From contig JBHGNT010000414.1 of the NCBI GenBank assembly GCA_043228905.1, positions 1-27,272 of the forward strand: a stretch of DNA of 27,272 bases, read 5' to 3'. Both the position numbers and the translations under genes were made by a program. The stretch is from Azolla caroliniana. Taxonomy: Eukaryota; Plantae; Polypodiophyta. Under the pieces are notes generated by a model. It did not search any database and was not told the origin of the DNA. It saw only the letters and a program-made list of their open reading frames with translations. Shown here piece after piece: positions 1,158 through 27,087 of the stretch (the first letter of the stretch is position 1; every line of letters begins with the position of its first letter).

Positions 1158-3599
1158 TCATGTTGTTCGCCATAAGAATGGTATTGGTGGCAGGAACAAC
1201 CAACGAGGTGGCACATAATTCCACCTAACCTCCGTGCCTACATCTAACATTATAGGAATAGCTGACCAAACTAGTCGTAATCTCTTTCTTTTTCGAATGG
1301 TTGTGTTTCCATAGACTTTATACCTGTCATACTCACCTTTAACGGAATGTACTAATAAATTCCAAAAAGACTTTACCTGATCCACAACGTGAATGTCTTC
1401 ATCATTGTATAACTTGGAGCACCTAGCTTTCCAAAGAACCCATAGAGACAACAAGGAGACAATCTGCCAAACATAACTCCGCGAGAAGAACTTGACTCCC
1501 TGCAAGGATCTTGAAGTAGAATATACCTGAAAACTTCTTACATATAAAGACAATGAAGAATGATTATAATGATAAAAAGCCCTTTGTTGATCCAACATTC
1601 CCCAAAAGACTGCACCCCACGTAAAAATAGCAGACCTGTACTTACGACCTAGAAGCCTAAGAATTCGACACCAAAAACTTTTTGCAGAAACACATTCCCA
1701 AAATGCATGATGCAATGTCTCATCCGCAAACCCACACATAATACATGACCGATTACTCATCGATCCCCTCAATAAATGACCTATTGGCAATGAATAATGA
1801 ATCATCAACCATCGAAAATGCAATATCTTATTCATGCATTTAATAGACCAAAACTGTTTCCAAAACATAACCATATGAGTAGATGAAACATTACCTTCCT
1901 CCCAATACTTTTTTCCAGCAGGTATCAGCTCGGTCTTCCTCAACATAAAATTCCTGCCAAACGCTATTGAATATTTGAAAAAAGGAAGGAGCTTAGTCGA
2001 AGAGTCAGATATGGATAATTTCCAACCATAATCCACTGGATCCCACTGCAGGTCATCAATAGGTTTAGAGTCTAACACCGAAATATGAGATGAAAAATTA
2101 ACTATTAGTGGACTAGGATCGATATATATATTTTTATTTAATCTAGCAATTACTCGCACTGGCAATTGCTTCGCAGCCAACATGATTTGAGACTCCTCAT
2201 CCACTAGTATCAACCTACCATTGTCCAACACTTCATAAAAATAAATGCTACCATTTTGATCATATAACCGATCTCCTATAAGTATATTGAGTGTCAAGAA
2301 CATACCGTACCAACTTTGAAAATGATCGAATTGCAATGTAGGCACTATGACCTGATACACCCTGGACAACTGTGATAACATGATCTTAGCCCCTCTTAAG
2401 TTAGATAACCTATTACTTTGCTCCAGCGTAGTGGACTGCATAAACCTTATCCAATCCGCAACCGTACGAGCTGGTCCACTATCCATTGCAGCCCATGATA
2501 ACGTAGGTAGTAAACCCAAAACATATGCAGCTTCATCAGTAAATAAAGGATTCCATATCAATGGTTGACGCATAAATTGATGATAGCTTTTCGGTGGCAA
2601 GAAAACAAGCGCTTGCCGAAGAGTTTCCCATGCCCGAAAAATTCCATTGAAGAAACGCAATGATCCATCATTGGACTTAGGTAGCGTGAAATCTGCATTG
2701 AAGAACCATTTAAGACTATCCTTCCATTGACCACCTACCGAAGGCTTGACCTTATATAGATGTTGCATCCATAGCTTTTTCCATAACTCCTGTCCTGGCA
2801 ATAAACTCCTAACAACATGTTTAGTAAGTAAAGCTTTGGTTTGCATAAATGGATCAATCAAACCTAAACCACCTTTTTGTTTAGGTTGTATCAGAATAGA
2901 CCAAGCTACCTTTGCTACAGGATTGACTGACCTATTGTTCCCCCAAATAAAATTCCGTACTAAACGTTGAACTTTCAACATTATTGACATAGAAAACAGC
3001 CATGTAGATGCTATATACCAAATCGAGGACAACAACACCGCATTAGCTACAACTACACGTCCTGCTAAAGATAATTTTTCTTTATTCCAATATACTAATT
3101 TATTTCTTAATCTTAACAATAAGGGTGCAATCATATCTTCTGACTTTAATCCCACACCCACTCGACAACCTAAATACCTAATGGATTGACCTTGAGGTAT
3201 CCATGTGAATCCTAAAGAGGGTACATTAACTGGCGGATCTCTCGAAGCGACCCAAAAACCTGATGACTTATCCCAATTTATCAATGCACCCGATGCATCT
3301 GAGAAATCATCCACGGCCTTTTGCACATGAAACAAATTACCATGTGAGGCCTGAACATATAAAACTTTATCATCAGCGAATTCACAATCCACATTTGCGT
3401 TTGCTACTGGTAGTGCTAAACCTTTAATATTTACATATGGAGAATTTAAATGTACAGAGAATGCTTCGGATACTAACAAAAACAGGAAAGGAGCAAGTGG
3501 ACATCCCTGGCGTACAGATCTTGAAATAAAAAAACGCCTACCAATGTTCCCTGTATTTAATAGAGAACTACTTGCATTACGATATAATGCTGAGTATCC
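1158..3599 (-). CDS. LINE ORF2 C-terminal part (RT domains 4-7, thumb, zf-RVT zinc knuckle), 5'-truncated, no internal stops
   Basis: The frame stays open upstream of the listed start: SRSVRQGCPLAPFLF, then FADD, YLG, LSLAGRVVVAN, PKQKGGLGL and the CxxC..ETLHHAFWEC knuckle. Confidence 0.9.
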   Translation of the reverse strand, partial: GYSALYRNASSSLLNTGNIGRRFFISRSVRQGCPLAPFLFLLVSEAFSVHLNSPYVNIKGLALPVANANVDCEFADDKVLYVQASHGNLFHVQKAVDDFSDASGALINWDKSSGFWVASRDPPVNVPSLGFTWIPQGQSIRYLGCRVGVGLKSEDMIAPLLLRLRNKLVYWNKEKLSLAGRVVVANAVLLSSIWYIASTWLFSMSIMLKVQRLVRNFIWGNNRSVNPVAKVAWSILIQPKQKGGLGLIDPFMQTKALLTKHVVRSLLPGQELWKKLWMQHLYKVKPSVGGQWKDSLKWFFNADFTLPKSNDGSLRFFNGIFRAWETLRQALVFLPPKSYHQFMRQPLIWNPLFTDEAAYVLGLLPTLSWAAMDSGPARTVADWIRFMQSTTLEQSNRLSNLRGAKIMLSQLSRVYQVIVPTLQFDHFQSWYGMFLTLNILIGDRLYDQNGSIYFYEVLDNGRLILVDEESQIMLAAKQLPVRVIARLNKNIYIDPSPLIVNFSSHISVLDSKPIDDLQWDPVDYGWKLSISDSSTKLLPFFKYSIAFGRNFMLRKTELIPAGKKYWEEGNVSSTHMVMFWKQFWSIKCMNKILHFRWLMIHYSLPIGHLLRGSMSNRSCIMCGFADETLHHAFWECVSAKSFWCRILRLLGRKYRSAIFTWGAVFWGMLDQQRAFYHYNHSSLSLYVRSFQVYSTSRSLQGVKFFSRSYVWQIVSLLSLWVLWKARCSKLYNDEDIHVVDQVKSFWNLLVHSVKGEYDRYKVYGNTTIRKRKRLRLVWSAIPIMLDVGTEVRWNYVPPRWLFLPPIPFLWRTT

Positions 3600-4318: not shown

Positions 4319-4923
4319 TTGGAGTAATAAAAAAGGATCAAGGGCCAAGAGGACTCCCATTGCACTTCAGCAATGAATATCCCTAAAAAAATTCTTTATT
4401 TTAGCAATTATGATGAATAATTTCTAGAGCTTTTTGTTTTGTGAAGGAATTTCTTATCATGATATTAGTGGATAGGTTATTGAACACTATAAAGTGCGGG
4501 CACACCATGTTTGGATTATTATCAATCCTTAATTGGACTACATGCGACAAACAAACCCGCACGCACATGCACACTCACACCCACAACAAGGACCTTAATA
4601 TTGAGAACATGCAAAAATAAATTTATGTGAATATTAAATAACCACTTCATTAAATGAATATTGTTGACAGGTCCTTCCCTAAGAATATACCCACCATTTG
4701 AATATATCATCGTGAAGCCCTTCACTTTTATGGGCATGTATTGTATTCTTGACACTGTTTTGTATCCACCACTATGTATGTCCCTCAAGCGTATCTATAT
4801 AAATACATATCATCCAAACCAGAAACATACACACACACGCACACACAACCAAAGCTAGGACTTGAATAACTAGGACACAAGCAAAAATAAGATTACGTGA
4901 ATAATAAACCACCACTTAATAGA
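4319..4923 (+). promoter_or_regulatory. PR-1a upstream region with TATA box (TATATAAATA 4796-4805) and CA-rich leader
   Basis: TATA box ~120 bp before the ATG at 4924. The region is homologous to 10239-10733 upstream of the second PR-1 copy. Confidence 0.6.
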
Positions 4924-5250
4924 ATGAAGAACCAACACAATGACTTTATTCATCTTGCACACATTACTCTTCTATTTGTGTTGATGAATTGTGCCACAAT
5001 TGGCATGGCTCAATCAGTAAATGATGACTTTGTAAATGCTCACAATGTTGAGAGGGAAACATTAAGCATTCCACTTCTTGTGTGGAATGAAACATTGGCG
5101 ACCTACGCTTACCAATATGCCACAACACAGGATACAAATGAAGGTGGTTGCTCTGGCGCATTGGTCCATTCTGGTGGTCCATTGACTATACTCGTGGGAT
5201 TCATGAGTTTTTCGTATCTTTCTTTCTCACAATATATTTCACATTCTTAA
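4924..5250 (+). pseudogene. PR1: PR-1/CAP-family gene, N-terminal half only (signal peptide to HSGGP), fused at ~5183 to LTR sequence
   Basis: MKNQ..hydrophobic signal..AQSVNDDFVNAHNVER..LVWNETLATYAYQYA..C..LVHSGGP. The expected YGENL and GHYTQVVW motifs are absent, and the ORF reads on into LTR DNA to a stop at 5250. Confidence 0.85.
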
Positions 5251-5342
5251 TTGCCTTAGAATTTTCCTTCCTCCTAGTCCAAAACCCTAGTGGTTCCCAC
5301 CCGACTCACGCAACGATTCGGAGGCGAAAGGCATGACACAAG

Positions 5343-5360
5343 TGGTGAACCCGACGTGAA
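5343..5360 (+). other. Primer binding site, tRNA-Trp
   Basis: TGGTGAACCCGACGTGAA is complementary to the 3' end of plant cytosolic tRNA-Trp (..TTCACGTCGGGTTCACCA, recalled). It lies 4 nt after the LTR end CATGACA. Confidence 0.85.
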
Positions 5361-5376
5361 AATAGGTGGCAAGGAG

Positions 5377-7871
5377 ATGGAAAATCAACTGGAGGCTAAC
5401 AACATGATGATGATGTTCGAACGGATGCTTCAGGAACAACGTGTGATGTCGGAGATAGCGGCGGCAGTAGAGCGGCTCGTGCAACGGATCAGACAATTCA
5501 ACGGAAAGGACGTATCGCGCTATCTTCGGGACTACAAGGCGGAAATGATACGGTGTGGGATTTTGGAAGGACTACAAGTGACATCCTTCAACCGGGTGGC
5601 TACCGACGGGCTTCAAGCAAGTATCCACGAGCTACGACAACAGAATCTGACATGGGAAGCGTTTGAAGAGGCGCTAAAGACCACGTTCGCTATCGAGGAC
5701 TCCTCCAAGGCAACGCGGAGAGGATTGGGTAGAAACGCCGGACAAGGGGATGAAGGACCTCGATGTGTTTTCGGCATTCGAAAGTCGGTTCGGGAGGTTG
5801 TCTGCGAGAGATCAAGCTATCCTCGCACCGGACAAAGTTATCATGTTCTTACGAGCCGTAGACGTCCGGGACCGGAAGGATCTTGGAGTGCTTCTAGAGG
5901 ACACGAATACCGAGAGTGGCCTCACCGAAACATGGGAAAGTGTGCGAGATATCGTTGCGCGATACACAAAGAGGGGGCAATTGTTACGGACATGACCATT
6001 TAATATCCCATGGTGAGAATTTACCGTAGTATTCTATACACGTGGATAAGTGTGAGGGTTAAATGAGAGTGTAAAGAAGGGGAGGATTACTTTTAATCCT
6101 CGGGATTGAGACAACCCAATCGGTCAAGTGTGAACTTGCCTGGGGGCCTTGGGTATCGCTATAAATAAGAGGCCTAACTGCCCTCATTTAATCATCTTTT
6201 GATTACATCGAGACTCTGCTCTTGTGGTGGGTCAACTCTTGTAGCGAGTGCGCCAAAACCAGGTACAACTCGACGCCATGGCGGTGGTATGGGACGCCGA
6301 TCAAGGCTCGAGTCCGTCTCGATCCCTTCGCTCGGGGGTGGTCAGGTGGATCGGCACCCTTCTTTCTCTTTCTCCTTTCTATCTATCATTTGTTTATCCT
6401 TATCTTAAGCTTACTTTAGTACTTAGATCTCTAATAGCAATGGCTTGCCAATGAAGAAAAGAGGGTTTCGGAACCGATTCCGAAACCGAGATCCGGATCG
6501 GAACACCATCAACCGCGGGCTCAGGAGGCTACAACTGAGAAGGGAATCGACGCAACTACGGTGGAGCAATTGCTGAAGGAGATGGAAAATCTAAAAATCG
6601 CGATGGTGAAGAAGTCGGATGACCGTCCCACAAGTTCCAAGTACATGGACCGTCGATGCATATGGTGCGATAGCACCGAACATGATCGGAGGGATTGCGA
6701 CGAGCACAAGGAAGCGCTACGACGGGATCTTATCTACTACGAGGGAAATCAGATTCATTCGATGGACTCTCGGAAGTCACTCCGACTGAACTTCCGGAAA
6801 GGCGGCATGAAGAAGATCCTAGAGGAGGAAATAGCGGTGAAGAACAATTACGCGACAACCGCGGGAATACGTGTCGGGGAGTCATCGGGAGCAAAGGTGT
6901 CTTTTTGGCCGGAAGTGCTAGAAAACACCGAGAAAACCGACTCTAACGAGATCCGAAGTACCGCGGAAGGCATCCGGGAAGCTACGGGATGGGAGTGCCC
7001 CGTCGATAAGAATAGCGTGTTTGCTTTATGCCAATTGCATGAAGTGTATGTAGATGAGAAGCGACAACACACGGATGAGGCGACCGGTCCATCGAAGACA
7101 CCGGAAAGCTGGAACTCCATAGGTAAGGGAAAAGAAAAGATGATTCCGGCATTCAAGCTTGCCTCGGACATCGAACAACAAACGGACTTGAAAAAGGTGT
7201 TCGAGGAGAGAATCCTCGATAGCCGGGTAGATTTTTCGCTTCGAGAATTACTCGGAATAGCGAAGAAGGAGTTCCACGATCTTCTTGTGGATCTCGTGAA
7301 GAGAAAAATGCAAAGTATGGAGGAGAACGCTCCAAGGGTGAATGCAAATACCGTTCTAATGAATGACACTGAATTGGATGGCGAAATACCAAATTCTCAC
7401 TACACAAAACCACACTGGGAACGCGCAACTACGGAGACTCCGGTCCGAATCGGTAACATCAAAGAACCCATGCTAGCATTGATTCATTACGGATCGGAGA
7501 TCAACTTGATGTCCAAGGAATTCTACCAGAAGGGTAAGTGGCCTATTAACACCAATCATGGGTGGAAGATCCGGGCGGCCACTAAAGCAACAAAAGATCT
7601 ATTTGCGACTTGTCCGGATGTGACGGTGAAGATCGGGGATGTCGAGATCGTCCAAAATTTCTTCGTACAAGACGAGGTCTCACATTCCGTGATCCTCAGG
7701 CAACCTTTTATCACGGCATCACGGATGGAGACGAAGGTGCTCGATAGCGGTGCGGCTTTTGCGCAAATTCGGAGCCAAAACGGAGGGAAATCCGTCGAAT
7801 TCCTAATAGTGCAGGCAAATCATGAAAGGAACAAGAAAGATCACCTGTCCCAAACAAGAATGGATTTTTAG
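5377..7871 (+). pseudogene. gag: Family A gag-protease ORF, disrupted by a 7-bp deletion (~5725) and the solo LTR
   Basis: Removing 5982-6441 restores KRGQ|WLANEEKR..TTVEQLL. Contains the zinc knuckle CIWCDSTEHDRRDC, a degenerate protease motif ALIHYGSEINLM and VILRQPF. Stop TAG at 7869-7871. Confidence 0.88.
5982..6436 (+). mobile_element. Solo LTR (455 bp) of the chromovirus, GCAAT target-site duplication
   Basis: Near-identical to 15294-15748 and 21855-22309. GCAAT at 5977-5981 and 6437-6441. G-box CACGTG at 6039-6044 and TATAAATA at 6160-6167. Confidence 0.96.
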
Positions 7872-7925
7872 AGCGGACCGTTGCGGAGTGGGGAAATGAT
7901 AGTCCGAGAAGCCCTGATACCCCAC
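7862..7925 (+). promoter_or_regulatory. Candidate -1 ribosomal frameshift signal: G GAT TTT heptamer plus H-type pseudoknot
   Basis: The heptamer directly precedes the gag-PR stop. The -1 frame is the RT frame. Stem 1 is 7874-7883/7897-7906 and stem 2 is GTGGGG 7888-7893/CCCCAC 7920-7925. Confidence 0.75.
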
Positions 7926-9677
7926 ACAAGAAGAAACCTCTCGGTGCAAAACAAGTACGAATCGGTCCTGATGGGGCATCCACGTACACGGCCGTAACCG
8001 GAAGAATGAAGAAAGAATACCGAAAGGTGGAGGATAAGTTATGGTAGACATCAATAATAAAAGAAGACGAAGAAATCGTGGGCATAGTAGAAGAAGTGTT
8101 CTATGGAAACACACTACAACGGCTTGAAGAGCTCGCAGAAGATACAAGTCAGGGAAACCGGGTAATTCCGGTGGAGTCGGTCGAGATGTACGAGATCATT
8201 GTGAAAATGGAGCCGGATGCACTCCACAAAGAAGAAGCAATGGTAAGTATGAAATACAAGATCGTGGAGAAGAAAGTGAAACCGGCCACGGGACCGTTAC
8301 TCGTAGATAGTGAACAAAAGAGGAAAGAAGTCTCAAGGGATCCGACACTTCGGAAGTCCATGGATATCGGACATGCCTTCACGGATGAGACCCGGAAGAA
8401 ACTTCGGATCGGTGGAGGTGGGTTCCTATTAAAGAATGAAGAAGAACGATTCCGTGGGATGCTAGAGCGACATGGGAGAGCATTTGCATTTACATCGAAA
8501 GAAATAGGATGCGCTGACCTGAAGATAGTGGAGCCGATGATGATCTTCACGATTGACCATGTGCCATGGAACCTGAAGCCGATTCCGGTGCCACGGGCGC
8601 ATATTCCGAAAATCATCGACTTGCTCAAGGAGAAGGTGGCGATGGGGATTCTAGAGCCATCAAATGCTCCGTACTCAAATCGATGGTTTACGGTTCCGAA
8701 GAAGAATGGGTCACTCCGATTTATTCAAGATTTGCAACCGGTGAACAAGGTCACGATCCGGAACTCCGGAGTCGGTCCGATAGTGGACGAATTTGCGGAA
8801 GCATTTGCCGGTCGCGCGATATACTCCATCAGAGACCTATACTCCGGATATGACCAATTCCAACTAGCTGGGAAGAGCCGAGACATCACTACCATGCGGA
8901 CACCGATAGGATTAGTCCGGATGTGTACGCTACCACAAGGCGCGACGAACTCAGTCGCACATATGATGAATGCGATGAACAAGGTGCTCCGGGATTGCAT
9001 ACTGGAGATAACAATGCCGTTCCTAGATGACATTCCGATAAAAGGGTGTGCGGTGGAAGAAAAAGATGAAGCTATGGATGAACGGGGATGCTGAAGGTTC
9101 GTAGTCAACCATATCCGTGATTGTGAGAAAGTGTTACGGAAGTTAGAAGATGTGCATCTAACACTTTCTGGAGAGAAATCGGCATTCGGACAAGAAGAAA
9201 GATTGGTAGTCGGACATCTATGTGGGCCCTACGGCCGAAGACCATCACCAACCAAGATCGATGCGATTCGAGCTATGAAAGAAGTATGCGAGTCACAATC
9301 CGAAGTTCGAAGGTTTCTTGGAGCATGTGCATTCTACCACATATGGATTCCGCACTATGCACATATAGCGGACCCACTCTATCTTTTGTTGCGGAAGGGT
9401 AAGAAGTTTGAATGGAAACCGGAGCATACCAAAGCTGTGAAGAAGCTCAAGAAATCACTACGGAGGGCAAAAGCACTAAAGAAGCCGAACTATGACCAAC
9501 CGATCATAGTAACGGTTCACACAAGTCCAACCGGAATCGGATGGGTCATCAATCAAGCCGATCCGGAAGGTTCGCGATATCCGATCCGATTTGGAGCAAA
9601 GGTTCTCAACAAAAGGCAACGTGGATATGCACAAGTTAAAAGAGAATTATGGGGAGTCGTGTCAGCAATCAAATCGG
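7862..9677 (+). pseudogene. pol: Family A pol (RT and partial RNase H), in the -1 frame relative to gag-PR
   Basis: WNLKPIPVPR, RFIQDLQPVNK, DLYSGYDQF, LPQGATNS, PFLDDIPIKG, VRRFLG, TSPTGIGW. In-frame stops at ~8045 and 9092, truncated at 9677. Confidence 0.92.
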
Positions 9678-9679
9678 GC

Positions 9680-9870
9680 TCTTAGAACAAAACTCCATAG
9701 AAAACTTATATTTCACATGATATTCCATGTCCTCCGTCTTTCCAATCATATGTGTCAGTTGTGGAGCTATAAGAAGATTCACCATCCCAATAGAAACAGT
9801 TGCAAACAGATATGAACTGATTCCAGCATTTGTAAAAACAGTTGGGGAGAAAAAGAAAAAAAAACCGACC
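9680..9870 (-). pseudogene. Possible degenerate fragment of an MFS monosaccharide transporter (pGlcT/SGB1-like)
   Basis: FFFSPTVFTNAGISSYLFATVSIGMVNLL, with FLWSF downstream in another frame, resembles the recalled motif VFYFSSTVFKSAG..SDLA.V.VG.VNLL..MDK.GRK.LLLWSF. Confidence 0.45.
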
Positions 9871-9893: not shown

Positions 9894-10238
9894 AATCTCC
9901 ACCTCTCACCCCATTTGCTTCGATCCCCACAACTTATTCACTCTCCCTTCATGATGTGCTTCGGCCCCCTCACCATCATCACTCCTAAAAACAACCAAAT
10001 TGCTTCATTCAATCCACCTCCACCATCTCGCCGAATGCCACCAATGTCCTATGGAATTAACAACAAAATAAGTAAAAGAATTCCTCATCCCCTCATGAGC
10101 TGCTTCGATCCCCCCCACCATCATCACTCCTAAAACAGACACATTGCTTCCTTTAGTCCACATCCACCATCTCGCCGAATACCACCAACGTCTTGTGCAA
10201 TGAATCAACAAAAATGAGAAATTGTTCCTTATCCCCTC
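9894..10238 (-). repeat. Second copy of the LINE 3' tandem-repeat region
   Basis: 10030-10238 matches 1-209 with ~6 mismatches. Additional partial units lie at 9894-10029. Confidence 0.92.
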
Positions 10239-10733
10239 TTAGGGTAATAAAAAGGGTCAAGGGCCAAGAGGACTCCCATTGTTCTTCAACAATGAATATC
10301 CAAAAAACAAATCATTTATTTTAGTAATTGTGATGAATAATTTCTAGAGCTTGTTGTTTTCTGAAGGAATTTTGTTATCACGATATTAATGGATAGGTTA
10401 TTGAACACTATAAAATGTGGGCACACCGTGTTTGGATTATAATCAATCCTTAATTGGACTACATGCGACAAACACACATGCACACACATGCACTCTCACA
10501 CCCACAACAAAGACTTTAATATTGAGAACGTGCAAAAATAATTTTAAGTGAATATTAAACAACCACTTTATTAAATGAATATTGTTACCATGTCCTTCCC
10601 TAAGAATATATCATGGTGAAGCCCTTCACTTTTATGGGCATGTATTGTATCCTTGACACTATTTTGTATCCAGCACTATGTATGTCCCTCAAGCGTATAT
10701 ATATAAATACATATCATCCAAACCACAAACATA
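10239..10733 (+). promoter_or_regulatory. PR-1b upstream region with TATA box (~10697-10708)
   Basis: Colinear with 4319-4829 at roughly 90% identity by eye. Confidence 0.65.
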
Positions 10734-10757
10734 TCATCCTCAATGCTCACAATGTTG

Positions 10758-11902
10758 TAGTAACAACCTCTGAAATTGCGTGGACAAGTCTTTTAGATGC
10801 TGAAAACTGTTTAATTAGCATTAAGGGAATGAAAGTAGAATCGAACGAGGTATGCTACTACAAACTAGAGCACGGAAGGGAAAAAGGTGAGCAACCAGTC
10901 TTTCAAAGAGAAAAAACGATTAGGCTGATCGTAAAAACTGGCAAGAATATGATTATTGACCCTAAGCCAAGGGAGATCACACCGGCGACAGTGTGTTGGC
11001 CTATAGAAGGGCATTTGGATCAGTTATCATGGGACCCAGCCAGGTATTTTTGGAGAACTCAAGGAAAAACTAATGGGGAAAAGCTGGTTCAATTTTTCAG
11101 GTATAACACGAAGATTGGGAGGCAAATTCTTCTAGAACAAAAACATGACAAGGTTGCGGCAAGGAAATTTTGGATGCAGGAGGGCATAAGTGAAAGGAGA
11201 CTAGATAAATTCTGGAAAATGATATGGCATGACAAATATGACCGCAAGATAATGATGTGTTTATGGCTTATTGCACATAGAGCCTTGCCGGTAGGGACGT
11301 GGGGTAAAGGCCCCAATGTAGACTCTAGATGTACTGCATGTGGACAGATAGAAAGCATCTCCCATTGTCTATGGGAATGTCGCAATGCAATGGCTGTATG
11401 GGGAAGGGCACTTCGTTTGCTTTGCCATGCCTCTAGTTCGTTCACCCTCAACTTGGGACATGCTTGTTGGATGTCTCTTGACGTTGATGTGGCGACATAT
11501 GATAGCACATGCAATGCTAAGTACAGAGGGGAGAATGGCATTGTTCGGCTGATCACTGACAATGGGGTACCTACAACTTGTGTACAGAATCAAAAACTTG
11601 AAGATCTTTGGATGTTGCTTGCCCCCATTACTATATGGCATATATGGACACCAAGGTGTACCAAGGTATTTTCCGCACACAAACGCCCTCCAGCTAAATC
11701 GATTAAGCTAATTTGGCACACACTCATAACTACACTAAGAGCTCAATATGAGCGGATTAATGGTACTAATGATGCTGCAGACCTAATGAGGCTGAATTTT
11801 CGAAAAAGATGGTGTACGACACCGACGGCCGCAGCAAATGGAATGGATATATTATGGAAGTATGATGTACCCAGATGGTTGTTTCCCCCTCCCATTAGTT
11901 GA
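10758..11902 (+). CDS. LINE ORF2 C-terminal region (zf-RVT), uninterrupted
   Basis: FWKMIW..LWLIAHRALPVG..CTACGQIESISHCLWEC..WKYDVPRWLFPPP, homologous to the C-terminus of the 1158-3599 ORF. Confidence 0.85.
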
Positions 11903-12127
11903 ACGAGGGCTGTGAAAGACATGGCAAGTGGGATAGTGAAGGTAGGTGATGTATCTGAAAGGATGGTTTGAGTCATATGTAAAAGTGTAAGATAAATAAG
12001 TGAGATCTCGTATGTAGGCTAGGATAATCTTGGCACGGCCTACCTGAGAAAGGGATCGTGTTCATGATTATTTTAACTAATGGAGTATATTCTCTTTTGG
12101 GAAAAAAAAAAGAAAAGAAAAGAAAAA
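10758..12127 (+). mobile_element. 5'-truncated L1-like LINE with A-rich tail and 13-bp TSD
   Basis: GCTCACAATGTTG at 10745-10757 and 12128-12140. A-rich tail at 12102-12127. The ORF contains zf-RVT. Confidence 0.95.
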
Positions 12128-13205
12128 GCTCACAATGTTGAAAGGGAAACATGAAGCATTCCACTTCTTGTGTGGAATGACACATTGGCGACCTCCGCTT
12201 ACCAATATTCTAGAACGCAGAAAAGAGTGCTTGGATCTCAGAAAAGAGTGACTAAGATTATAAGACCAACACTTGCGCTACTGGGCAAGTGTGTGGTCAC
12301 TACACCCAAGTGGTGTGGGCCACCACACTTCATGTTGGATGTGTTTCTCATGTATGCACCTCCACCCAAGGTGCAACATACATTATTTGCAACTATGATC
12401 CCCCAGGAAATATCTCTGGCGAACGCCCATATTAAGTTTCGGTCTGATCATTATACATATCCACCCACTTGCACTTGTGCCCTACACCAATACATATACA
12501 CCATCATCCCAAATAATCTTGCAATTGCTACAAATTGCCCTCCTTTGTTTTTAGGTATTTGTATCCATGTGAAATCATTGTTATTACTGTTTCTTGTTTT
12601 GTTTCAAATGCTCGAGAAATGATTGTTTTGAGTTAACTAACTCTTGTTGTGTGCTTGTAATAATTGCTAATGTAGAGAACAAACGCCATGGCTTTAAAGT
12701 TGTCGACAATATTTGTTATGACATGAAAGCCTTTTAAATTTTGATAGAGTAGGCCATGCTTGATCAAAATTATGTTTCTATTGGTAGATATTGCAATTTT
12801 TTTATTCCATAAAGCATAATAAAAAGGATTAAATTATGTACCCATAACATTCCTACTTAAAACATTTCCACAACTGTGCGGCGATTTATTGTGAGTAGAA
12901 TTAGATTGCTAATTATGAAAACGCATCATCTATAGAAATGTCTTCCCCTATTGAATATATGGATGTATTTTGTTCATTCTCGCAATCAAATGATGAGTGC
13001 AAGTGGAACACTTCAAGGGTTCAGCCAGAGATTCACTTGCGTAATTGTGGTTGACAAAACTATACTAGACTCTAGCAACGTTTTGTTATACTTAAAATTA
13101 ATGGATGTGAAGTATACGAGGGACCTTGGAGTACTTTTATAAATTGAAGAAGTTCTGTTTACACATTGGTCTGAAGGAGGCAAAGCAAGTGAACAATTTC
13201 ATAAG

Positions 13206-13746: not shown

Positions 13747-14642
13747 TGTCGTAGTGTAATTCGTACACTACGTGAAAGATTACATTTTTGGTCTCTCCAG
13801 ATAGGACATGGAGTACCCGGTGAGAACCAGAAGAAGGAACCAGTAAGGACCGAAACCGGCAAGGAGACCCAACAAGAGCCGGATGAAGAAGGCCGGTGAG
13901 AGTCGGTGAGAAACAGACGAAGAGATCGGTAAGGAGGTCCCGATAAGAACCGGACAAAGAAAACTATCAAGCACCGGATGAAGCAAAACCGGAAAGAGCC
14001 GGATGAAAAAGGCCGGTGAGAGTCTCTCACCGGATGAAGAGACGTATTTGTGAATAGAAGAAAGTATAAAAATATATATATTACATGCATAGGGCAAGAT
14101 TCGAACCTTGCACCTCCATGTTAATAATGTTAAGCCTTATCATTATAGTAGGGTATCATGAATTTTAAGTTATACTAAACTTTATTCCATGTAAAATTTC
14201 TAGACGTGCATGGTAAAAATGTTATTCATGCATAGACACTCGAGTTCAAAAAGAAAAGATGAGATAGAAAGCTAATCATGCACATGCAATGTGCATGAAA
14301 ACAAAAGATAGAAAAAGCATGATGCTTGCATGTGATAAACTTAGACTCTTCCAACACTATATAACGAAGAGAGAAAGATGTATAGAGGTTTTTGATTATT
14401 TTACAAGGGTTGATTAATATAATATAATCGTGGGGGTCCACGAATTTGCTAACTATTATTCTCTCTTAATTTGAGTACTCACTAATACACTATACTCGTG
14501 GGATTCACGAGTTTTTCATATCTTTCTTTCTCACAATATATTTCACATTCTTAATTGCCTTAGAATTTTCCTTCCTCCTAGTTCAAAACCCTAGTGGTTC
14601 CCACCCGACTCACGCAACGATTCGGAGGCGAAAGGCATGACA
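13747..14642 (+). repeat. Family A 5' LTR (~896 bp)
   Basis: Starts TGTCGTAG and ends CATGACA before the PBS. Internal direct repeat at 13874-13904 and 13994-14024. TATA-like CTATATAA at ~14357. The left boundary is inferred because no partner LTR is in the window. Confidence 0.75.
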
Positions 14643-14646
14643 CAAC

Positions 14647-14664
14647 TGGTGAACCCGACGTGAA
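14647..14664 (+). other. Primer binding site, tRNA-Trp
   Basis: TGGTGAACCCGACGTGAA, identical to 5343-5360. Confidence 0.85.
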
Positions 14665-14680
14665 AACGGGTGGCAAGGAG

Positions 14681-15293
14681 ATGGCAAATCAACCGGAGGC
14701 TAACAGCATCATGATGATGTTCGAGCGAATGCTTCAGTAAAAACATGCGATGTCGGAGATAGCGACGGCAGTAGAGCGGCTCGTGCAACGGATCGGACAA
14801 TTCAACGGAAAGGACGTATCACGCTGTCTTCGAGACTACAAGGCGGAAATGCTACGGTGCGGGATTTTGGAAGGACTACAAGTGACATCCTTCAACCGGG
14901 TGGCTACCGACAGGCTTCAAGCAAGTATCCACGGGCTACGACAACAGAATCTGACGTGGGAAGCGTTTGAAGAGGCGCTAAAGACCACGTTCGCTATCGA
15001 GGACTCCTCCAAGGCAACGCGGAGAGGATTCGAGGATTGGGTAGAAACGCCAGACAAGGGGATGAAGGACCTCGATGTGTTTTCGGCATTCGAAAGTCGG
15101 TTCGGGAGGTTGTCTGCGAGAGATCAAGCTATCCTCGCACCGGACAAAGTTATCATGTTCTTACGAGCCGTAGACGTCCGGGACCGGAAGGATCTTGGAG
15201 TGCTTCTAGAGGACACGAATACCGAGAGTGGCCTCACCGAAACATGGGAAAGTGTGCGGGATATCGTTGCGCGATACACAAAGAGGGGGCAAT
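14681..15293 (+). pseudogene. gag: Family A gag N-terminal part (continues at 22315-22499)
   Basis: ATG at 14681, premature TAA at 14738-14740 (GAA in copy 1), then FNGKDVSR..WEAFEEALK. Confidence 0.85.
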
Positions 15294-15748
15294 TGTTATG
15301 GACATGACCATTTAATATCCGATGGTGAGAATTTACCAGAGTATTCTATACACGTGGATAAGTGTGAGGGTTAAACGAGAGTGTAAAGAAGGGGAGGATT
15401 ACTTTTAATCCTCGGGATTGAGACAACCCAATAGGTCAAGTGTGAACTTGCCTGGGGGCCTTAGATATCGCTATAAATAAGAGGCGTAGCTGCCCTCATT
15501 TAATCATCTTTTGACTACATCGAGACTCTGCTCTTGTGGTGGGTCAACTCTTGTAGCGAGCGCGCCAAAACCAGGTACGACTCGACGCCACGGCGGTGGT
15601 ATGGGACGCCGATCAAGGCTCGAGTCCGTCTCGATCCCTTCGCTCGGGGGTGGTCAGGTGGATCGGCACCCTTCTTTCTCTTTCTCCTTTCTATCTATCA
15701 TTTGTTTATCCTTATCTTAAGCTTACTTTAGTACTTAGATCTCTAATA
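15294..15748 (+). repeat. Chromovirus 5' LTR
   Basis: TGTTA...TAATA, followed by the PBS. Confidence 0.95.
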
Positions 15749-15750
15749 TT

Positions 15751-15762
15751 TGGTATCAGAGC
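15751..15762 (+). other. Primer binding site, tRNA-iMet
   Basis: TGGTATCAGAGC, 2 nt after the LTR. Confidence 0.95.
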
Positions 15763-15994
15763 TATGTACTAATGTTTCTTTGTTTTTCATTTGTCGTTTG
15801 ATTGATGGTGATCGATCGATGTGCGGTCGGCCTTGATCCAGACAACGATCAACAAAGAACTTCGGTAACTCTTTCCAGAATTTTTATTCTATTCTCTCTT
15901 CTCCCATCTAATCATGTGTTTGGTTTATATGTCATTTTTTTTCATTAAGTCAATGATGTTGTAGTGGTCTTTAATTGATTATCTAAAACGTTTA

Positions 15995-16262
15995 CATATG
16001 TGCACGAGGTCAATACCTCGTTTGATATATTAATAATATGTGATGAGTGTCGTATGCGTACGAGGTTAATACCTCAATTACGTATTACGTTCATGAACAT
16101 ATGTTACGTTTGCGTATGAGTTTAATACCTTGATTTGTTGTAAACGATATGCGATTGGTCTCGTATGCGTAAGAGGTCAATACCTCAATTGCGTATTACG
16201 ATGATCTTTTATTTGTGGATGTTTCGTGTGCGTAGAGGTATATACCTCGATTACGTATCTCG
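15995..16262 (+). repeat. Five degenerate ~56-bp hairpin repeats in the chromovirus leader
   Basis: GAGGT-N4-ACCTC cores at 16006, 16062, 16118 (degenerate), 16173 and 16235. Confidence 0.8.
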
Positions 16263-17437
16263 ATCACATCATTTGTGGCTATTTAATATAACGATATGTT
16301 TAATATAGGCATATATGGTCACATATATACGTATTTGATCGTATATATGTGATAAGTAAACATATGTGTATATTCGTTATTACGTGATTATATCGAAAGT
16401 TGTCCTTGTCGGGAAAAGGATGTTGGTGGCCGTCCTCACATTTTTGTGAGAATGGCGTTGTCACCATCCCTTTTTCAACAATTTTTTATTGTTGATAACC
16501 CCGTTGATGACCTCGATTTCGTTACATAAAGAAACGCCAATAGCCATAATGATGTTGAGTACGTAGGGCTTGACCCACTTCAAGTGAGGTCGCTCCAATG
16601 ACGCACGTATCCAACATCCCTCCCTCGTTACATGGATACGATGCCACCATGAGTTCGTTCTTACGAGAGGCATTCGTAATGACGTGACCATGTGATGGCC
16701 CACGTGAGCCTACTACGAAATGAGGGCTCATTTGGCTTGACTATTAGGTTGCACTTTGGCGTATGCCATCGTAATTACGAGACTTGAGGTTAGGTAACGT
16801 ACCAACATAGTTTTGGTAAATGAGGGCGAAATAATGACCCTTGACATATATGTTCTTTTAAAAAAAAACATATATGATCAATTGCCTCGCATATCTCTTA
16901 TACGCATCAAACATTAAGCATTCGAGAAGAGCAACTTACTTGGTTGACTCGTGTTTAATGTATTTGTTGTCGAGGTTTCGAGTTCAAATATGACCAAGAC
17001 CATACAACATCCTTGATACATATGACTATAAAACATGTTTAGACTTAAGGTCTAAGTGCACCTCGGGGTCCTCGTAATAGGACTTAAAGAGACGAAACCA
17101 CATATGTGGGCACCGAAACATACTTTATTGTTAACATTTTTTTTCGTGTATAAACTATTCATGACGCGAACATACATGGTTGAGCCTCGGGGAGCCACCA
17201 TGAAAAAATCGATATAGAGATCAGGGAAAGACATTTATTTGTCACCCCCATGGTTTTTAAAACACCTTTGTGTTACCATAATAACCTGATCTTGAACCTC
17301 ATCTCATACGTCTATAGGGGTATTGACGTGAGATCATGATATCGATTAATGTTTGCCCATGATATGTTTACATGACGACATGATGTTATGACTATATCTA
17401 CGACCTTATCCTATTTCTTTTCCAGAAATAATCTTAA

Positions 17438-20400
17438 ATGGCACAAATTAACGTCCCGATGTCATCCGCTCAAGCGGAAGGAACTCAAGGAAATCCTCCT
17501 GGACAAATGTCCACTGAGATGTATTTGGCACAAATAACCCAATACCTTAGTTTCACCGCTCAACAGATGACCGAACTTCGGCAATCTCAGAGTGCTCTTG
17601 AGGCACGTGTCATTAGTCTACAATGTGAGACTAATAGACCTGATGAGCGACAAGGTGAACCATCATTTGTCGTTAAGCCATTTACGGGAGACAAAAAGGA
17701 AAGAACCGAAGAAGCAATCTGCACATGGTTGGGATGATGGGAGTCTCATTTTGAGCTCTATCCCACGCCAGATAGTACGAAGATTGCATATGTCGGCCGA
17801 GAACTCGGGGGTAAGGCCGCCACCTGGTGGCGTGGGCTCCGTACTATGGGGAAATTGCCCGATACCTGGACAGATTTTGTCATGGTTTTTAAGGGTCAAT
17901 TTCTGCAACCTCCCTCTCGAACCGAGGCAGCACAAGCTTTAATGAACCTCTCTAGCAAGAAATTTTCCTCGCTAGAAGACTATGTTCACCATGCTAGAAC
18001 CCAAATTCAAAAATCGGGTCTAGAAGGGGCAATTGGTTGATAGCTTGTTTTGTCAATGGCATCCCCAATTCGGACTATCACTGGATAGTGCACGATAAGG
18101 ATCCAAAATCCTTCGAAGAGGCCGTTGAAATAGTTCTTCGCTATCAACGCACTTCGAAGAAGGACCATAACAAACCCAATGAAGCGCCCGGGACTAAGCA
18201 GTCGCAATTTGTTGGGAAACGCAAGATACCCAACGAATTCCTGGATTGTGATTGTAAGTGACAACATCCTTTTTGTGTATTCTACAAAAAGAAGGGTCAT
18301 ACAAAAGATCAATGTCGAAAGCTCCAACGGAAAGAGCATGACAACAAAGCTAAAGCTGCAGACCATAAAGGTCAGATTCCTAATTTCCTTCAGGTCTATA
18401 CACATCATTTAAGTAATTGTCAATGTTCTTTCCCTCACTATGTATTGGGTCCCAATGAGTTACTATGTGCAAACGGGTATATCAATGGATCTCCCGTACA
18501 ATTTTTATTTGATTCGGGAAGCTCACACAATTTTGTGAATGATCGTTTGGTTCAGATATGGGGAATCCAACCCACCGTAAGGGATCACACCTACACGGTG
18601 CACTTGGCTGATGGAAGAGTACAATACATCAATGGGGCGATTCATTCATTAGGAATTTCTATTGATACTTATATAGAGGAAGTAGACTTCCATGTAATGA
18701 ATCTTTGTACCACCGATGTAATACTAGGTTATCCCTGGTTTTATAATAAAAACTCTTCTTTATTTATTGATTGGGTTCGTCATTCCATTTCTTTTGTACT
18801 GAACGATTGTATGCATTTTATTCAACGTGTAAAAAAACGATCCCTCTCGATTGTTTCCTCGTGTCCATCAATATCCGAGTTGTCTTGTTCTACATTATTT
18901 TATTGTGTACTTGATCCGGACATTCACATTTACAATATCGATAATGTCCTGGTTCAATTAACATATTTTGAACAACAACTTAATGAAATCTTAAATGATT
19001 TTCATGATGTTTTTCCAAGTGAACTACCTGATGGGTTACCTCCTAAACGTAATATAGACCATCGTATAGATATTGTACCTGGTGTTGCACCAATAAGTAT
19101 ACCTCCGTATCGCTTAAGTCGATCCGAAGAAGATGAGGTATCTAAGCAACTCAAGGACTATTTACGAATGGGTTATATACGTTATAGTAAATCTCCATGG
19201 GGTGCACTAGTTCTCTTGGTTAAAAAGAAAGAGGGCACATGGTGTATGTGTATTAATTACCGATGCTTGAATAAAGTGACGATCAAGATTTCGTACCCAT
19301 TGCACTGGGCTGACGATCTAATTGACCGTCTCGAGGGAGCTCGGTATTTTATGAAACTTGATCTCCGTACTAGCTACCATCAAATACGAATAAGTGAGGA
19401 CGATGTTCCTAAAACGGCATTTCGTACGGGCTTTGACCGTTACGAGTTTTTGGTTATGCCTTTTGGTTTGACCAATGCTCTGGCTACATTTCAACAAGAA
19501 ATGAATGACATTTTCCGAGAACAACTTGGAAAATTTGTCGTTATTTTCTTGGATGATATTTTAGTTTATAGCCGTACATTACAAGAACATGCTAAACATG
19601 TCCGCTTTGTTTTACAAACATTGCGTGACAAACAGTTTTATGCAAAGATCTCAAAATGTGAGTTCTTCAAGAAATCAATTACTTATCTAGGACATCTCAT
19701 AACCGAACGAGGAGTTGAAATTGATCCTTCTCGCATTGAGAAAATCAAGCTTTGGCCCACTCTTCGGAATATTCGAGAAGTTCGATCATTCCTTGGTTTT
19801 GTCGGGTTTTTGCGAAAATCTCCTCGTAATTACTCCCAATTCACGACGCCGTTTACTGATCTTTTAAAAGGTCAAACGCATAAGTCTACAAAACCTATTG
19901 TTTGGAATGCTACACTAGACCTTGCCTTTAAGGAACTCAAGGACCTGGTTTGCAAGGCTCCTTCACTTCTTTTACCTGATCCTTCAAAACCTTTTGAGGT
20001 TGAAACCGATGCAAGCGATTATGCTATAGGTGTTGTCTTGTATCAAGATGCTAAACCAATAGCATTCGAGAGTAAGAAACTTGATTCTGCTCAATGTCGG
20101 TATACCGTTCAAGAAAAGGAATTATTTGCAGTTATACATGCGCTCAAAACATGGCGCCATTATCTTTATGGAAATCACTTTGTGGTAACTACGGACCACG
20201 AGTCCTTGAAATATTTTTGTGATCAACAAGACCTGAAAGGTCGTAAGGCACGATGGGCTGATCTCATCCAGGACTTTGATTTTTCCATACGATATCGTAA
20301 AGGTTCCATGAACACTATCGCTGATTCACTAAGTCGCATCCGTGAAGTTAACATGCTTAGCTTCACTGAAATAACATCAGATCTTTATGATCACCTTCGA

Positions 20401-21859: not shown

Positions 21860-22309
21860 TGGGCATGAACATTTAATATCCCATGGTGAGAATTTACCGT
21901 AGTATTCTATGCACGTGGATAAGTGTGAGGGTTAAACGAGAGTGTAAAGAAGGGGAGGATTAGTTTTAATCCTCGGGATTGAGACAACCCAATAGGTCAA
22001 GTGCGAACTTGCCTGGGGGCCTTGGGTATCGTTATAAATAAGAGGCCTAGCTACCCTCATTTGATCATCTTTTCACTACATCGAGACTCTGCTCTTGTGG
22101 TGGGTCAACTCTTGTAGCGAGCGCGCCAACACCAGGTACGACTCGACGCCACGACGGTGGTATGGGACGCCGATCAAGGCTCGAGTCCGTCTCGATCCCT
22201 TCGCTCGGGGGTGGTCGGGTGGATCGGCACCCTTCTTTCTCTTTCTCCTTTCTATCTATCATTTGTTTATCCTTATCTTAAGCTTACTTTAGTACTTAGA
22301 TCTCTAATA
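21855..22309 (+). repeat. Chromovirus 3' LTR
   Basis: About 19 substitutions versus the 5' LTR over 455 bp (by-eye count). Confidence 0.95.
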
Positions 22310-22499
22310 GCAATGGCTTGCCAACGAAGAAAAGAGGGTTTCGGAACTGATTCCGAAACCGAGATCCGGATCGGAACACCATCAACCGCGGGCTCGAGAA
22401 GCTACAACTGAGAAGGGAATCGACGCAACTACGGTGGAGCAGTTGCTGAAGGAGATGGAGAATCTAAAAATCGCGATGGTGAAGAAGTCGGATGACCGT

Positions 22500-26600: not shown

Positions 26601-27085
26601 CTCGGTTGCTGCTGCCTCCATCTTCTCTTCACTACCAATAGGTAATGGTACTGCAGCAGGTTTGACCTTTTTATCTATTGTTTTGTATTTTGTATTACAT
26701 AAACTTTCTACTTCTTCATATTTACAATTATACCTATCAATCTCATAATACATATCAATTGAGTTTACATGTATCTTTCTAACATTCTCATCATCTTCTT
26801 TCAAATACATTTCTAACTCTTCTAAAGTATTTGCAAAAGAAATTTCTTCCATAACACTTTCAATCTGCTCTTCTTTTTCAAGTACTCCATTATCCTTCAA
26901 TGCTTGCTGAAACAGATTAGCATTCTTTTTCAAGTTCCTCTTGCATTCATACATCCTAGTCACACATATAGCACCACTTTCAGAAACATGAAATGACTTA
27001 TTCATATGTTGTAATGCCCTATATGAGGGTCTTTTAATAATGGGACTATTCCAACCCTCACTCGCAACAGTCCTAGTCAAAAACC
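23622..27085 (-). pseudogene. pol: Family B pol (RT-RNase H-integrase, no chromodomain), single in-frame stop at 24174-24176
   Basis: PFLDDIPIKG, TVDTSPIGIGW, VETDC, HDSLWAGH..CEVC, WMVDL/IIADKGE/KIERGH, WFGPY. IRD*PRML (probably TGG>TAG) joins the two listed ORFs in frame. Confidence 0.95.
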
Positions 27086-27087
27086 TG
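27023..27087 (-). promoter_or_regulatory. Candidate frameshift signal of family B (GGTTTT-TGA plus H-type pseudoknot)
   Basis: Stem 1 GGACTGTT/AATAGTCC and stem 2 GTGAGGGTT/GACCCTCAT, at the position homologous to 7862-7925. Confidence 0.72.

Follow-up and report, generated by a model that had tools for sequence, protein, structure and literature searches.

Interrupted expression between protease (PR) and reverse transcriptase (RT) has precedents among plant gypsy retrotransposons, which use other means to bring it about. In the available portion of the REXdb classification, Ogre (GAG-PROT:_:RT-RH-INT) carries a partly spliced intron and Retand (GAG-PROT:s:RT-RH-INT) an in-frame stop codon at this position, and neither is listed there with overlapping frames or with a slippery site and pseudoknot (PMC6317226). 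Tcn1 and Selgy (GAG:o:PROT-RT-RH-INT), also listed there, are gypsy elements from seed-free plants and, like the elements described below, have open reading frames (ORFs) that overlap; their overlap lies between Gag and protease (PMC6317226). For the non-chromovirus Phygy lineage, called specific to Physcomitrella, the same portion gives the ORF organisation as ND (PMC6317226). Our literature search for this recoding signal or two-ORF layout in such elements found no description.

Among plant viruses, the programmed -1 ribosomal frameshifting (PRF) of dianthoviruses and umbraviruses offers a parallel, with G_GAU_UUU, a close stop, plant ribosomes and a polymerase reached via the -1 frame; as far as the accessible text goes, however, their stimulator is a stem-loop paired with sequence about 4 kb away, whereas the elements here are LTR retrotransposons with a compact, local predicted pseudoknot (PMC5009743). 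The same text gives G_GA and G_GU heptamers as known -1 sites, states that a nearby stop matters in PEMV, and lists G_GAU_UUU as a natural heptamer variant, in line with the original prediction, which had cited it as functional in dianthoviruses (PMC5009743). The alpharetrovirus RSV also shifts by -1 into pol, a likeness of function. As here, its protease lies within the upstream ORF; its heptamer differs from G_GAU_UUU, and it is a vertebrate retrovirus.

Natural -2 shifting is represented in one review, in the part available, by phage Mu, the arteriviruses (protein-stimulated) and Trichomonas virus 1. In the arterivirus PRRSV, GG_GUU_UUU gives -2 while the -1 frame stops at once, and shorter spacers are said in the accessible text to favour -2 (PMC4937337), a rule drawn from engineered constructs. 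The -2 optimum lies at spacers 1-2 nt shorter than for -1 (PMC3458567), and the -2 optima of Lin et al. (5-8 nt) were measured on U6A in rabbit lysate, a site other than AG_GUU_UUU.

Two probable recoding junctions in the window

The window, the whole 27,272-nucleotide stretch of Azolla caroliniana DNA that was analysed (contig JBHGNT010000414.1), contains two such elements on opposite strands (Table 1). In element A, the frame from 7862 is -1 relative to the ORF 6438-7871 and matches RVT_1 in 8048-9094; the original prediction had correctly called this the RT frame and located its stop at 8045-8047, but missed a second stop at 9092-9094. Its description of the heptamer, a 5-nt spacer, a stem 1 with one mismatch and a GTGGGG/CCCCAC pairing was borne out position for position. 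Our own pseudoknot scan placed the window copy above 25 of 25 dinucleotide shuffles. Nested folding of this copy did not recover stem 1 (z +1.22 and +0.29), and a comparison of 7700-8100 with Rfam gave no match at E 10; the closest relative, L001, does fold stem 1, at an ensemble frequency of 0.81. The bulk of family contigs in four sequencing runs lack both the 7879 mismatch and the 8045 stop, which are private to the window copy. The signal of element A exceeds chance, as confirmed by the shuffle scan and by conservation and covariation in relatives.

The element itself is a dead relic still bearing the signal. Its gag is interrupted twice, by the solo LTR and by a frameshift near 5655, and its RT, with the second stop, is cut off near 9677. 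The earlier reading of gag and protease as one ORF holds in relatives (P0001, 679 aa) but not in this copy, where gag is split. A PDB sequence search with the protease gave no match, and a fold search was used instead: the upstream domain is predicted to adopt a retropepsin fold (pLDDT 77), matching the Ddi1, XMRV and HIV proteases at E 1e-5. Relatives keep the catalytic Asp that this copy has lost, mostly as D-H-G (166/192).

The form of the junction in element B had been missed by the original prediction. Its -1 frame is closed immediately by UGA, and its pol is open in the frame reached by -2 or +1, which are alike in DNA. A mutation of this one copy was considered as the source of the offset and rejected: contigs of the four runs list no indel between 26880 and 27272, and two metagenome relatives (L060 and L059) share the offset.

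Table 1. Coordinates of putative recoding signals and associated features of elements A and B in the window
Feature	Position	Strand	Remarks
Element A, 5' LTR remnant (end) and primer-binding site TGGTGAACCCGACGTGA	5335-5360	+	bounds approximate
Solo LTR of another gypsy element (C)	5968-6436	+	inserted in element A gag
Element A, 3' part of Gag-protease ORF	6438-7871	+	weak DUF4100
Element A, protease domain	~7422-7840	+	catalytic Asp lost in window copy
Element A, -1 frame: ~120-codon linker, RT, partial RNase H	7862-9685	+	two stops, at 8045 and 9092; cut off near 9677
Element A, slippery heptamer G_GAU_UUU (GGATTTT), last Gag-PR codons	7862-7868	+	conserved in relatives
Element A, Gag-PR stop TAG	7869-7871	+	directly 3' of shift site
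Element A, predicted pseudoknot stem 1	7874-7906	+	arms 7874-7883 and 7897-7906; one C.A mismatch at 7879
Element A, predicted pseudoknot stem 2	7888-7925	+	GTGGGG 7888-7893 with CCCCAC 7920-7925; scan and covariation
Element B, 3' LTR	22500-22892	-	flank CCGT (fits NCGN)
Element B, RT-RNase H-integrase ORF	24174-27167	-	-2/+1 frame relative to own Gag-PR; open 969 codons from shift site
Element B, predicted pseudoknot	27023-27073	-	stem 1 of 8 bp without mismatch, 27073-27066/27050-27043; stem 2, 27061-27054/27030-27023; 5-nt spacer
Element B, Gag-PR stop UAG	27073-27075	-	one codon past shift site
Element B, shift site AG_GUU_UUU	27079-27086	-

Conservation of the junction across the lineage

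Metagenome loci and run contigs were used in place of host-genome copies. Eighty of 164 metagenome relatives entered the survey and one without a stop (L065) was then dropped, so that 79 loci and the two window elements gave 81 scored junctions; most loci come from assemblies with consecutive names (ERZ10343-ERZ10344) and are therefore not independent samples. Viral contigs yielded one marginal match only (L081, dropped), and prokaryote genomes searched for relatives yielded none. A slippery heptamer, variants included, stands at the protease end in 75/81 junctions, and in 27 of these 75 no stop interrupts the -1 frame for more than 1000 codons after the site. The six loci without an in-frame heptamer comprise two with the cassette out of frame (L064, L077), one with a U-run variant (L074) and three with none (L047, L062, L079). 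Where RT could be matched (65 loci), it lies in the -1 frame in 58 and in the -2/+1 frame in 3, the remaining 4 being degraded copies. A family consensus with PR and RT in one frame would have spoken against the original prediction; instead, the offset is a family trait, and the run contigs have no indel near the junction. The possibility that the offset of element A is a mutation of one copy was rejected on the same two observations.

Heptamers of the -1 form are G_GAU_UUY, also G_GGU_UUU and G_GUU_UUC, with the stem-1 core 6 nt downstream. Because the search pattern fixed GAU/GUU/GGU and UUY in advance, the only features left free to serve as tests are the first base and the ratio of UUU to UUC. 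The codon preceding the heptamer, Met and Trp set aside, has G as its last base in 51 of 52 cases spanning 10 amino acids, compared with a background of 29.6%, and the A-site codon is UUU in 55/59, though upstream Phe codons favour UUC (178 vs 110 UUU). Among 157 distinct Gag-PR C-termini, Riccia, Adiantum and Physcomitrium entries included, 144 finish in DF-stop, [GNV]F-stop, xF+1 or xF+5. Three sequence features of canonical -1 PRF are present, namely an X_XXY_YYZ-type heptamer at the ORF overlap, a predicted stimulator at 5-6 nt (canonical range 5-9 nt) and a -1 ORF open without a conserved start; the private stop closes that ORF in the element A copy of the window. Long fused database proteins were considered as proof of a single ORF and set aside: those named are spliced gene models with varying joints, and only P0148, a distant relative, appears to carry PR and RT in a single frame, which means that the wider group does not always depend on recoding.

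The junction alignment comprised 46 of 55 distinct junctions (45 with at least 140 open codons, plus the window copy). An alignment and covariation check of the kind proposed with the original prediction supports the stems: both sides change in 15/18 pseudoknot pairs, and covariation is 0.318 compared with 0.212 +/- 0.010 in shuffled alignments (0/500 as high), a control that ignores the relatedness of the sequences, and with 0.078-0.154 in slid ones. A predicted H-type pseudoknot was found in 53 of the 55 distinct junctions, scoring above all 25 shuffles in 49, and RNAalifold recovers stem 1 unaided. Stem 2 is the weaker of the two: 5/6 of its pairs change on both sides and 74.6% of cells are paired in fixed register, its 3' arm moves 1-2 columns between families, and many of its pairs join a G-run to a C-run. 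Pairing the stem-1 loop with bases further 3', and covarying, stem 2 fits a predicted H-type pseudoknot.

The AG_GUU_UUU form, represented by three sequences in two families (element B, L060 and L059), has the pseudoknot of the -1 form with a spacer one base shorter. Among the 65 loci with an RT match, the -2/+1 junctions are all the GGUUUUU ones and only those. Pol is open in the -2/+1 frame in all three (969, 1100 and 1153 codons), and the -1 frame closes after 1-6 codons. The stem-1 core begins 5 nt after the site in 3/3 of these rows vs 6 nt in 43/43 -1-type rows; the difference in spacer and the change of frame stem from a single event and do not count as two independent facts. In L063, with G_GUU_UUC and a 6-nt spacer, pol remains in the -1 frame. 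The two families are ~80% alike in pol and form one clade at 91/100 in an unrooted tree of 34 pol sequences and an outgroup. The outgroup branch is too long to place the root, so it is on parsimony that the -2/+1 form appears derived from the -1 signal.

These Ty3/gypsy elements look like REXdb Phygy. The likeness, to the extent of the available description, lies in a gypsy-type order of domains that lacks a chromodomain, a DUF4100 Gag and Physcomitrium relatives, with the NCGN flanks and the primer-binding site as candidate further points (PMC6317226); the difference lies in a GAG-PROT frame that overlaps the one for RT-RH-INT, with a recoding signal, and in Gag-PR relatives from Riccia and Adiantum. 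A Pfam search of four full pol ORFs found no chromodomain or extra archaeal RNase H in any. A 4-bp NCGN stands at the single visible flank of element B, L018, L022 and L035, no element having both flanks visible. The primer-binding site, TGGTGAACCC.. after the LTR, is shared by 28 of 37 loci of at least 5.5 kb, -1 and -2 types alike, and is a putative match to tRNA-Trp; ARAGORN found no tRNA for comparison in 12 loci. Gag-PR relatives with matching C-terminal residues come from Physcomitrium, Riccia and Adiantum, that is, moss, liverwort and fern; the original attribution to moss gypsy elements thus stands for some named relatives, but not for the liverwort and fern, and the host is not established as a moss.

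Candidate routes to pol and direction of the proposed shift

From the junction sequences we consider -1 PRF across the lineage highly probable. Very likely, the conserved slippery site and predicted pseudoknot end Gag-PR, and a minority of ribosomes slips back, mostly by one base and likely by two in the subclade of element B, to make RT-RNase H-integrase. Most ribosomes would terminate 0, 1 or 5 codons past the site and release Gag-PR, which would keep protease output near parity with Gag and hold the pol enzymes at a low, fixed proportion; the minority slipping back one base at a G_GAU_UUY-type site would enter pol in the -1 frame. The proposal that Gag-PR is made stoichiometrically and RT-RH-IN by frameshift gains support from the family offset, the covarying stems, the coding linker and the predicted retropepsin fold.

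An Ogre-like intron removing the stop and cassette has a precedent in plants, at least as Ogre is described in the available text (PMC6317226), and PR is joined to RT in eleven long models (NCBI/UniRef) of Riccia and Physcomitrium, those examined skipping the cassette. The stretches these models omit differ, however, with a motif-to-motif distance of 77-183 aa where measurable, as with introns invented by gene finders. Contigs of the four runs, probably DNA, bear on neither splicing nor expression; the joints listed in them are single low-depth contigs, and none takes out the junction with GT-AG ends. From the heptamer on, the linker is stop-free in the -1 frame over 110 codons in 42/47 loci, against 0/47 for either other frame, and its changes favour the third codon position (72/59/127 in 13 pairs, vs 25/23/14 in the cassette). 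Purines make up 60% of it and U 24%, and a rough pattern detects no acceptor-like site in 40 of the 47 loci; by these measures it behaves as coding sequence rather than intron. Splicing would also leave the conserved heptamer and covarying stems unexplained, and on this indirect evidence we regard it as very improbable. Separate translation of pol, by reinitiation, internal entry or its own transcript and served by the structure, is just as hard to credit. Gag-PR does close with a true stop, and gag-pol expression without simple recoding has reportedly been discussed for Candida Tca2 (PMC2194720). Yet there is no conserved Met, the first one ranging from codon 1 to 109 and lying past codon 80 in 17/50 loci, the frame is open and protein-like well upstream of it, and the heptamer would again go unexplained. 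Least likely of all, with almost no weight, is restoration of the frame not by the ribosome but by RNA polymerase or RT slipping along the run of five U: both forms have five U, but the run shrinks to U3-U4 in the UUC and G_GGU variants with the offset unchanged, the fixed 5-6 nt spacer to the pseudoknot suits ribosome geometry, and polymerase slippage usually requires longer runs.

For the element B subclade, -2 slippage is the probable route. On AG_GUU_UUU a slip of two bases would leave the A-site tRNA-Phe fully paired again, an outcome that GAU_UUU does not allow, and this re-pairing makes -2 likely there. P-site re-pairing after such a slip (GUU to AGG) would be poor, a point that counts against -2. 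Alternatively, the subclade alone might shift +1, at UUU_G, UUU_U or the stop, the rest of the lineage remaining -1; we think this unlikely. The DNA frames would be the same, the U6 run of L059 permits full +1 re-pairing, the stop is one codon downstream, and +1 shifting is given in the accessible text as common among LTR elements (PMC5009743). In element B and L060, however, the slip would place tRNA-Phe on UUG; if instead the following codon or the stop occupied the A site, the ribosome would by then have taken in stem 1, which starts at the G of UAG; and -2 preserves the F-L-x-R register of the -1 relatives, whereas +1 drops one residue. The site also fits the arterivirus -2 motif as far as that source describes it (PMC4937337).

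Returning to -2, element B appears to work like the PRRSV site without belonging to that system. A purine-G_GUU_UUU site is present in 3/3 members and an immediate -1 stop in element B and L060; according to the available text, PRRSV differs in having no RNA structure, in needing an nsp1beta-PCBP complex and in reaching an accessory ORF (nsp2TF) in its -2 frame, whereas element B has a predicted cis pseudoknot 5 nt downstream and the essential pol in that frame (PMC4937337). The predicted pseudoknot takes the place of the protein-bound C-rich stimulator of arterivirus -2 PRF. In the pol register, the U-run to stem distance is equal in the -1 and -2 forms, and the ribosome would therefore come to rest at an identical position ahead of the pseudoknot in both. 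Loss of a single A from the heptamer may be enough to convert one form into the other.

Implications for the lineage

We lean towards the view that this moss, liverwort and fern lineage makes RT by pseudoknot-driven -1 shifting after the protease, and that one branch switched to -2, as its sole route to pol, by a single-base loss. The conserved -1 signal would fill the REXdb gap on Phygy coding organisation and suggests a cause for the inconsistent gene-finder introns in Riccia and Physcomitrium elements, and the lineage supplies a single compact frameshift pseudoknot of plants in dozens of natural variants. More weight attaches to the -2 branch than to the -1 signal. If true, it would give plant ribosomes a natural -2 signal stimulated by RNA structure, beside living -1 sister forms, and would put the mRNA-tension model of shift direction to a natural test; what sets that direction is directly testable because the two natural forms share the pseudoknot and differ by one base.

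Junction and state of the window copy

Element A, the plus-strand Ty3/gypsy copy, carries the slippery heptamer, stop codon, one-mismatch stem 1 and loop pairing of the original prediction exactly where it had placed them. The -1 frame beginning at the heptamer is, as also predicted, the RT frame, with a stop at 8045-8047 followed by RT and RNase H. The proposed single gag-protease ORF holds in part: the upstream frame ends as described, but gag is broken. Pfam matches for the domain upstream of the junction are weak; its structure model (pLDDT 77) resembles the Ddi1, XMRV and HIV proteases, and on this model the domain is a protease. The copy is dead, since gag contains a solo LTR and a frameshift, the catalytic Asp of the protease is absent, RT carries two stops, and the alignment to intact relatives stops near 9677. 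Plain folding of this copy did not recover stem 1. The bulk of family contigs from four runs shares neither the mismatch at 7879 nor the stop at 8045, and the differences listed for these contigs include no indel close to the junction.

The segments 5185-9677 and 14489-22499 are about 96% identical, and both contain family-A gag with element C, another gypsy element, inserted at the same site. Because element C is a solo LTR in one and a full element in the other, the solo LTR is suggested to have formed after the local duplication. Element B, a minus-strand gypsy relative, then lies antisense 190 bp farther along in the second copy. Gag and PR-RT-RH of element C are in different frames, the layout REXdb gives for Tcn1, and no chromodomain was found in it at 21076-21735. 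Element A also interrupts the first of two CAP gene fragments.

Coordinates of junction components and other features in the window
Feature	Position	Strand	Basis or remark
Slippery heptamer G GAT TTT, element A	7862-7868	+	window sequence
Gag-PR stop TAG, element A	7869-7871	+	window sequence
Stem-1 arms, element A	7874-7883 with 7897-7906	+	window sequence; one mismatch
Stem 2, element A	GTGGGG 7888-7893 with complementary CCCCAC 7920-7925	+	window sequence
ORF of element A upstream of shift site	6438-7871	+	ends at TAG
Solo LTR of element C in element A gag (first segment)	5968-6436	+	
LTRs of full element C (second segment)	15280-15748 and 21841-22309		
Element C Gag fragment	17738-18040	+	other frame than PR-RT-RH
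Element C PR-RT-RH	18262-20574	+	element C within 17738-21738
CAP (cysteine-rich secretory / PR-1-like) gene fragments	4891-5250 and 12124-12220		duplicated
LINE-type RT/zf-RVT remnants (two)	1158-3599; 10604-11902	-; +	
Arrays of about 145-148-bp repeats	1-566 and 9944-10238		open frame on minus strand

Conservation of the frame and the RNA signal

Alignment of the protease against metagenome contigs identified 164 relatives, of which the 80 listed were used; most derive from assemblies with consecutive names, and the loci are therefore not independent samples. Among 81 scored junctions, including the two window elements and otherwise drawn from these 80, 75 have a heptamer no more than 12 codons before the Gag-PR stop, at a distance of 0, 1 or 5. 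Comparison across family copies did not place PR and RT in one frame: among matches listed, RT is in the -1 frame in 58 of 65 junctions with an RT match and in the -2/+1 frame in three, the remaining four being degraded copies that contain indels or premature stops. The -1 frame stays open for >1000 codons from the shift site in 27/75 (among matches listed); these long frames encode RT, RNase H and integrase, and none of four pol frames tested contains a chromodomain. Gag-PR proteins end in DF*, [GNV]F*, xF+1 or xF+5 in 144 of 157 distinct cases, including Riccia sorocarpa, R. fluitans, Adiantum nelumboides and Physcomitrium patens entries known from protein alone.

In a third arrangement (loci L055, L061, L071, L075 and L078), the Gag-PR stop falls five codons past the shift site, within the 5′ arm of stem 1, and the protein ends in ..DF/GF-x-x-x-P-L; xF plus five residues ends 38/157 C-termini, Physcomitrium and Adiantum proteins among them. 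One low-coverage copy (L074:4043-4100) has a longer U-run, GGG then seven T, upstream of the usual stem.

Codon statistics from 59 distinct junctions of the listed relatives point to selection on the signal as RNA. The codon preceding the shift site ends in G in 51/52 non-Met/Trp cases, spanning 10 amino acids, relative to 29.6% upstream, and the last heptamer codon is UUU in 55/59, though UUC outnumbers UUU upstream (178 vs 110); the middle codon was fixed by the search pattern and is uninformative as a test. Our own scan, which used approximate stacking energies and 25 shuffles per junction, predicted a pseudoknot in 53 of 55 distinct junctions and ranked it better than every shuffle in 49. 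In a nearly gap-free alignment of 46 junctions, with the structure taken from the window copy, 15 of the 18 predicted pairs show changes on both sides. The covariation score is 0.318, compared with 0.212 ± 0.010 after shuffling (0/500 as high, in a control that ignores kinship among the junctions) and 0.078-0.154 for slid structures. RNAalifold recovers, unaided, the 8-bp core of stem 1, with double changes in 6/8 pairs. Stem 2 is weaker (74.6% paired), and its register moves by 1-2 columns. The pseudoknot first proposed for one copy is supported by covariation, most clearly in stem 1.

Two other routes to pol were weighed. Were the linker, from heptamer to RT, an intron, splicing would remove the junction, and eleven long database proteins do join PR to RT; these are, however, eukaryotic gene models that omit differing stretches. 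The linker also behaves as coding sequence: for 110 codons past the shift site the -1 frame lacks stops in 42/47 loci while the other two frames are stopped in all, and across 13 independent pairs linker changes fall 72/59/127 by codon position, a third-position excess that is lacking in the heptamer-pseudoknot cassette (25/23/14). Linkers are purine-rich and U-poor, and by a rough pattern 40/47 have no acceptor-like site; splicing is disfavoured. Pol might alternatively begin at its own start codon, but the first pol-frame Met varies in position from codon 1 to 109. Programmed -1 frameshifting after the protease, at a real and conserved signal, is very likely, and the original reading, that RT-RH-IN is made in this way, very likely holds for most of the lineage, in which site and frame are conserved and the stems covary. 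In P0148 (ENA, 1374 aa), a distant relative, the protease runs on into RT without a change of frame, and ..ADFED.. occupies the place of the usual junction. A single-ORF form is therefore probable in the wider group; P0148 itself may be such a natural form or an assembly indel.

Element B and the -2/+1 arrangement

Element B is 57% identical to A in pol. Its Gag-PR frame terminates CAG GUU UUU GAC UAG, and it carries a pseudoknot of the A type, in which each stem has 8 bp; stem 1 is perfect, and stem 2 has an A-U pair where a G-C would stand. A UGA stops the -1 frame immediately, and pol lies in the -2/+1 frame, where 969 codons are stop-free. Loci L060 and L059 (95% and 80% to B) share this arrangement (1153 and 1100 open codons in the -2 frame, 1 and 6 in the -1 frame) and form one clade with B (support 91/100). 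Between 26880 and 27272 the contigs from four runs are free of indels, and a contig of 444 bases from another labelled organism crosses the junction gap-free.

Among listed relatives, the heptamer-to-stem-core spacing is 5 nt in all three -2/+1 forms and 6 nt in 43/43 others; L063 combines G_GUU_UUC and 6-nt spacing with a -1 pol. In pol register the distance from U-run to stem is equal in the A and B forms, so that all that sets them apart is the phase in which the upstream frame arrives; deleting a single A from GGAUUUUU would turn the -1 form into the B form. Judged from these sequences, the subclade probably shifts -2. A +1 shift, which reaches the same DNA frame, is considerably less likely, and other routes are less likely still.

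Known elements and proposed mechanism

The visible flank, on one side only, is NCGN in four elements, and 28/37 long loci share one PBS, presumably a match to tRNA-Trp. In these features, and in lacking a chromodomain, the elements resemble REXdb Phygy, of which they are putative members. In the available part of PMC6317226, Phygy ORF organisation is given as ND, Gag/PR overlaps are noted for Tcn1, Selgy and some SIRE, and PR/RT breaks are limited to Ogre (intron) and Retand (stop), whereas our elements have overlapping frames there. According to the accessible text of PMC5009743, G_GA and G_GU heptamers are natural -1 sites, plant elements in a 2003 survey gave +1 cases only, and the natural -2 cases named are Mu, arteriviruses and Trichomonas virus 1. 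At PRRSV GG_GUU_UUU, as in element B, the -1 frame runs into a stop, and -2 slippage is favoured when the spacer is shorter (PMC4937337, in part); an engineered U6A series, with a -2 optimum at spacers 1-2 nt shorter than for -1, agrees with B (PMC3458567, in part). The accessible text of PMC7466625 lacks the terms 'frame', 'ORF' and 'splic', and that of PMC11963269 does not treat the PR/RT junction. The original prediction knew of no such description for moss gypsy elements, and no account of this signal was found in the freely accessible full texts searched.

From the observed frames, site, spacing and covariation, we infer that the pseudoknot would stall ribosomes while GAU and UUU occupy the P and A sites; a minority would slip -1 and yield Gag-PR-Pol, while the remainder would stop and release Gag-PR. 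In element B a -1 slip would be a dead end; a slip of two bases would let tRNA-Phe pair fully again on the U5 run, and the reduced spacer length would tip the balance towards -2. The mechanism is a known one, in a lineage and at a position for which no description was found, and the surprising part is the probable -2 branch. Of 192 distinct relatives, 166 have D-H-G as the protease active-site triad (window about 7480-7495; P0001-P0303) and 12 have D-T/S-G. Speculatively, an attenuated protease would suit synthesis one-for-one with Gag.
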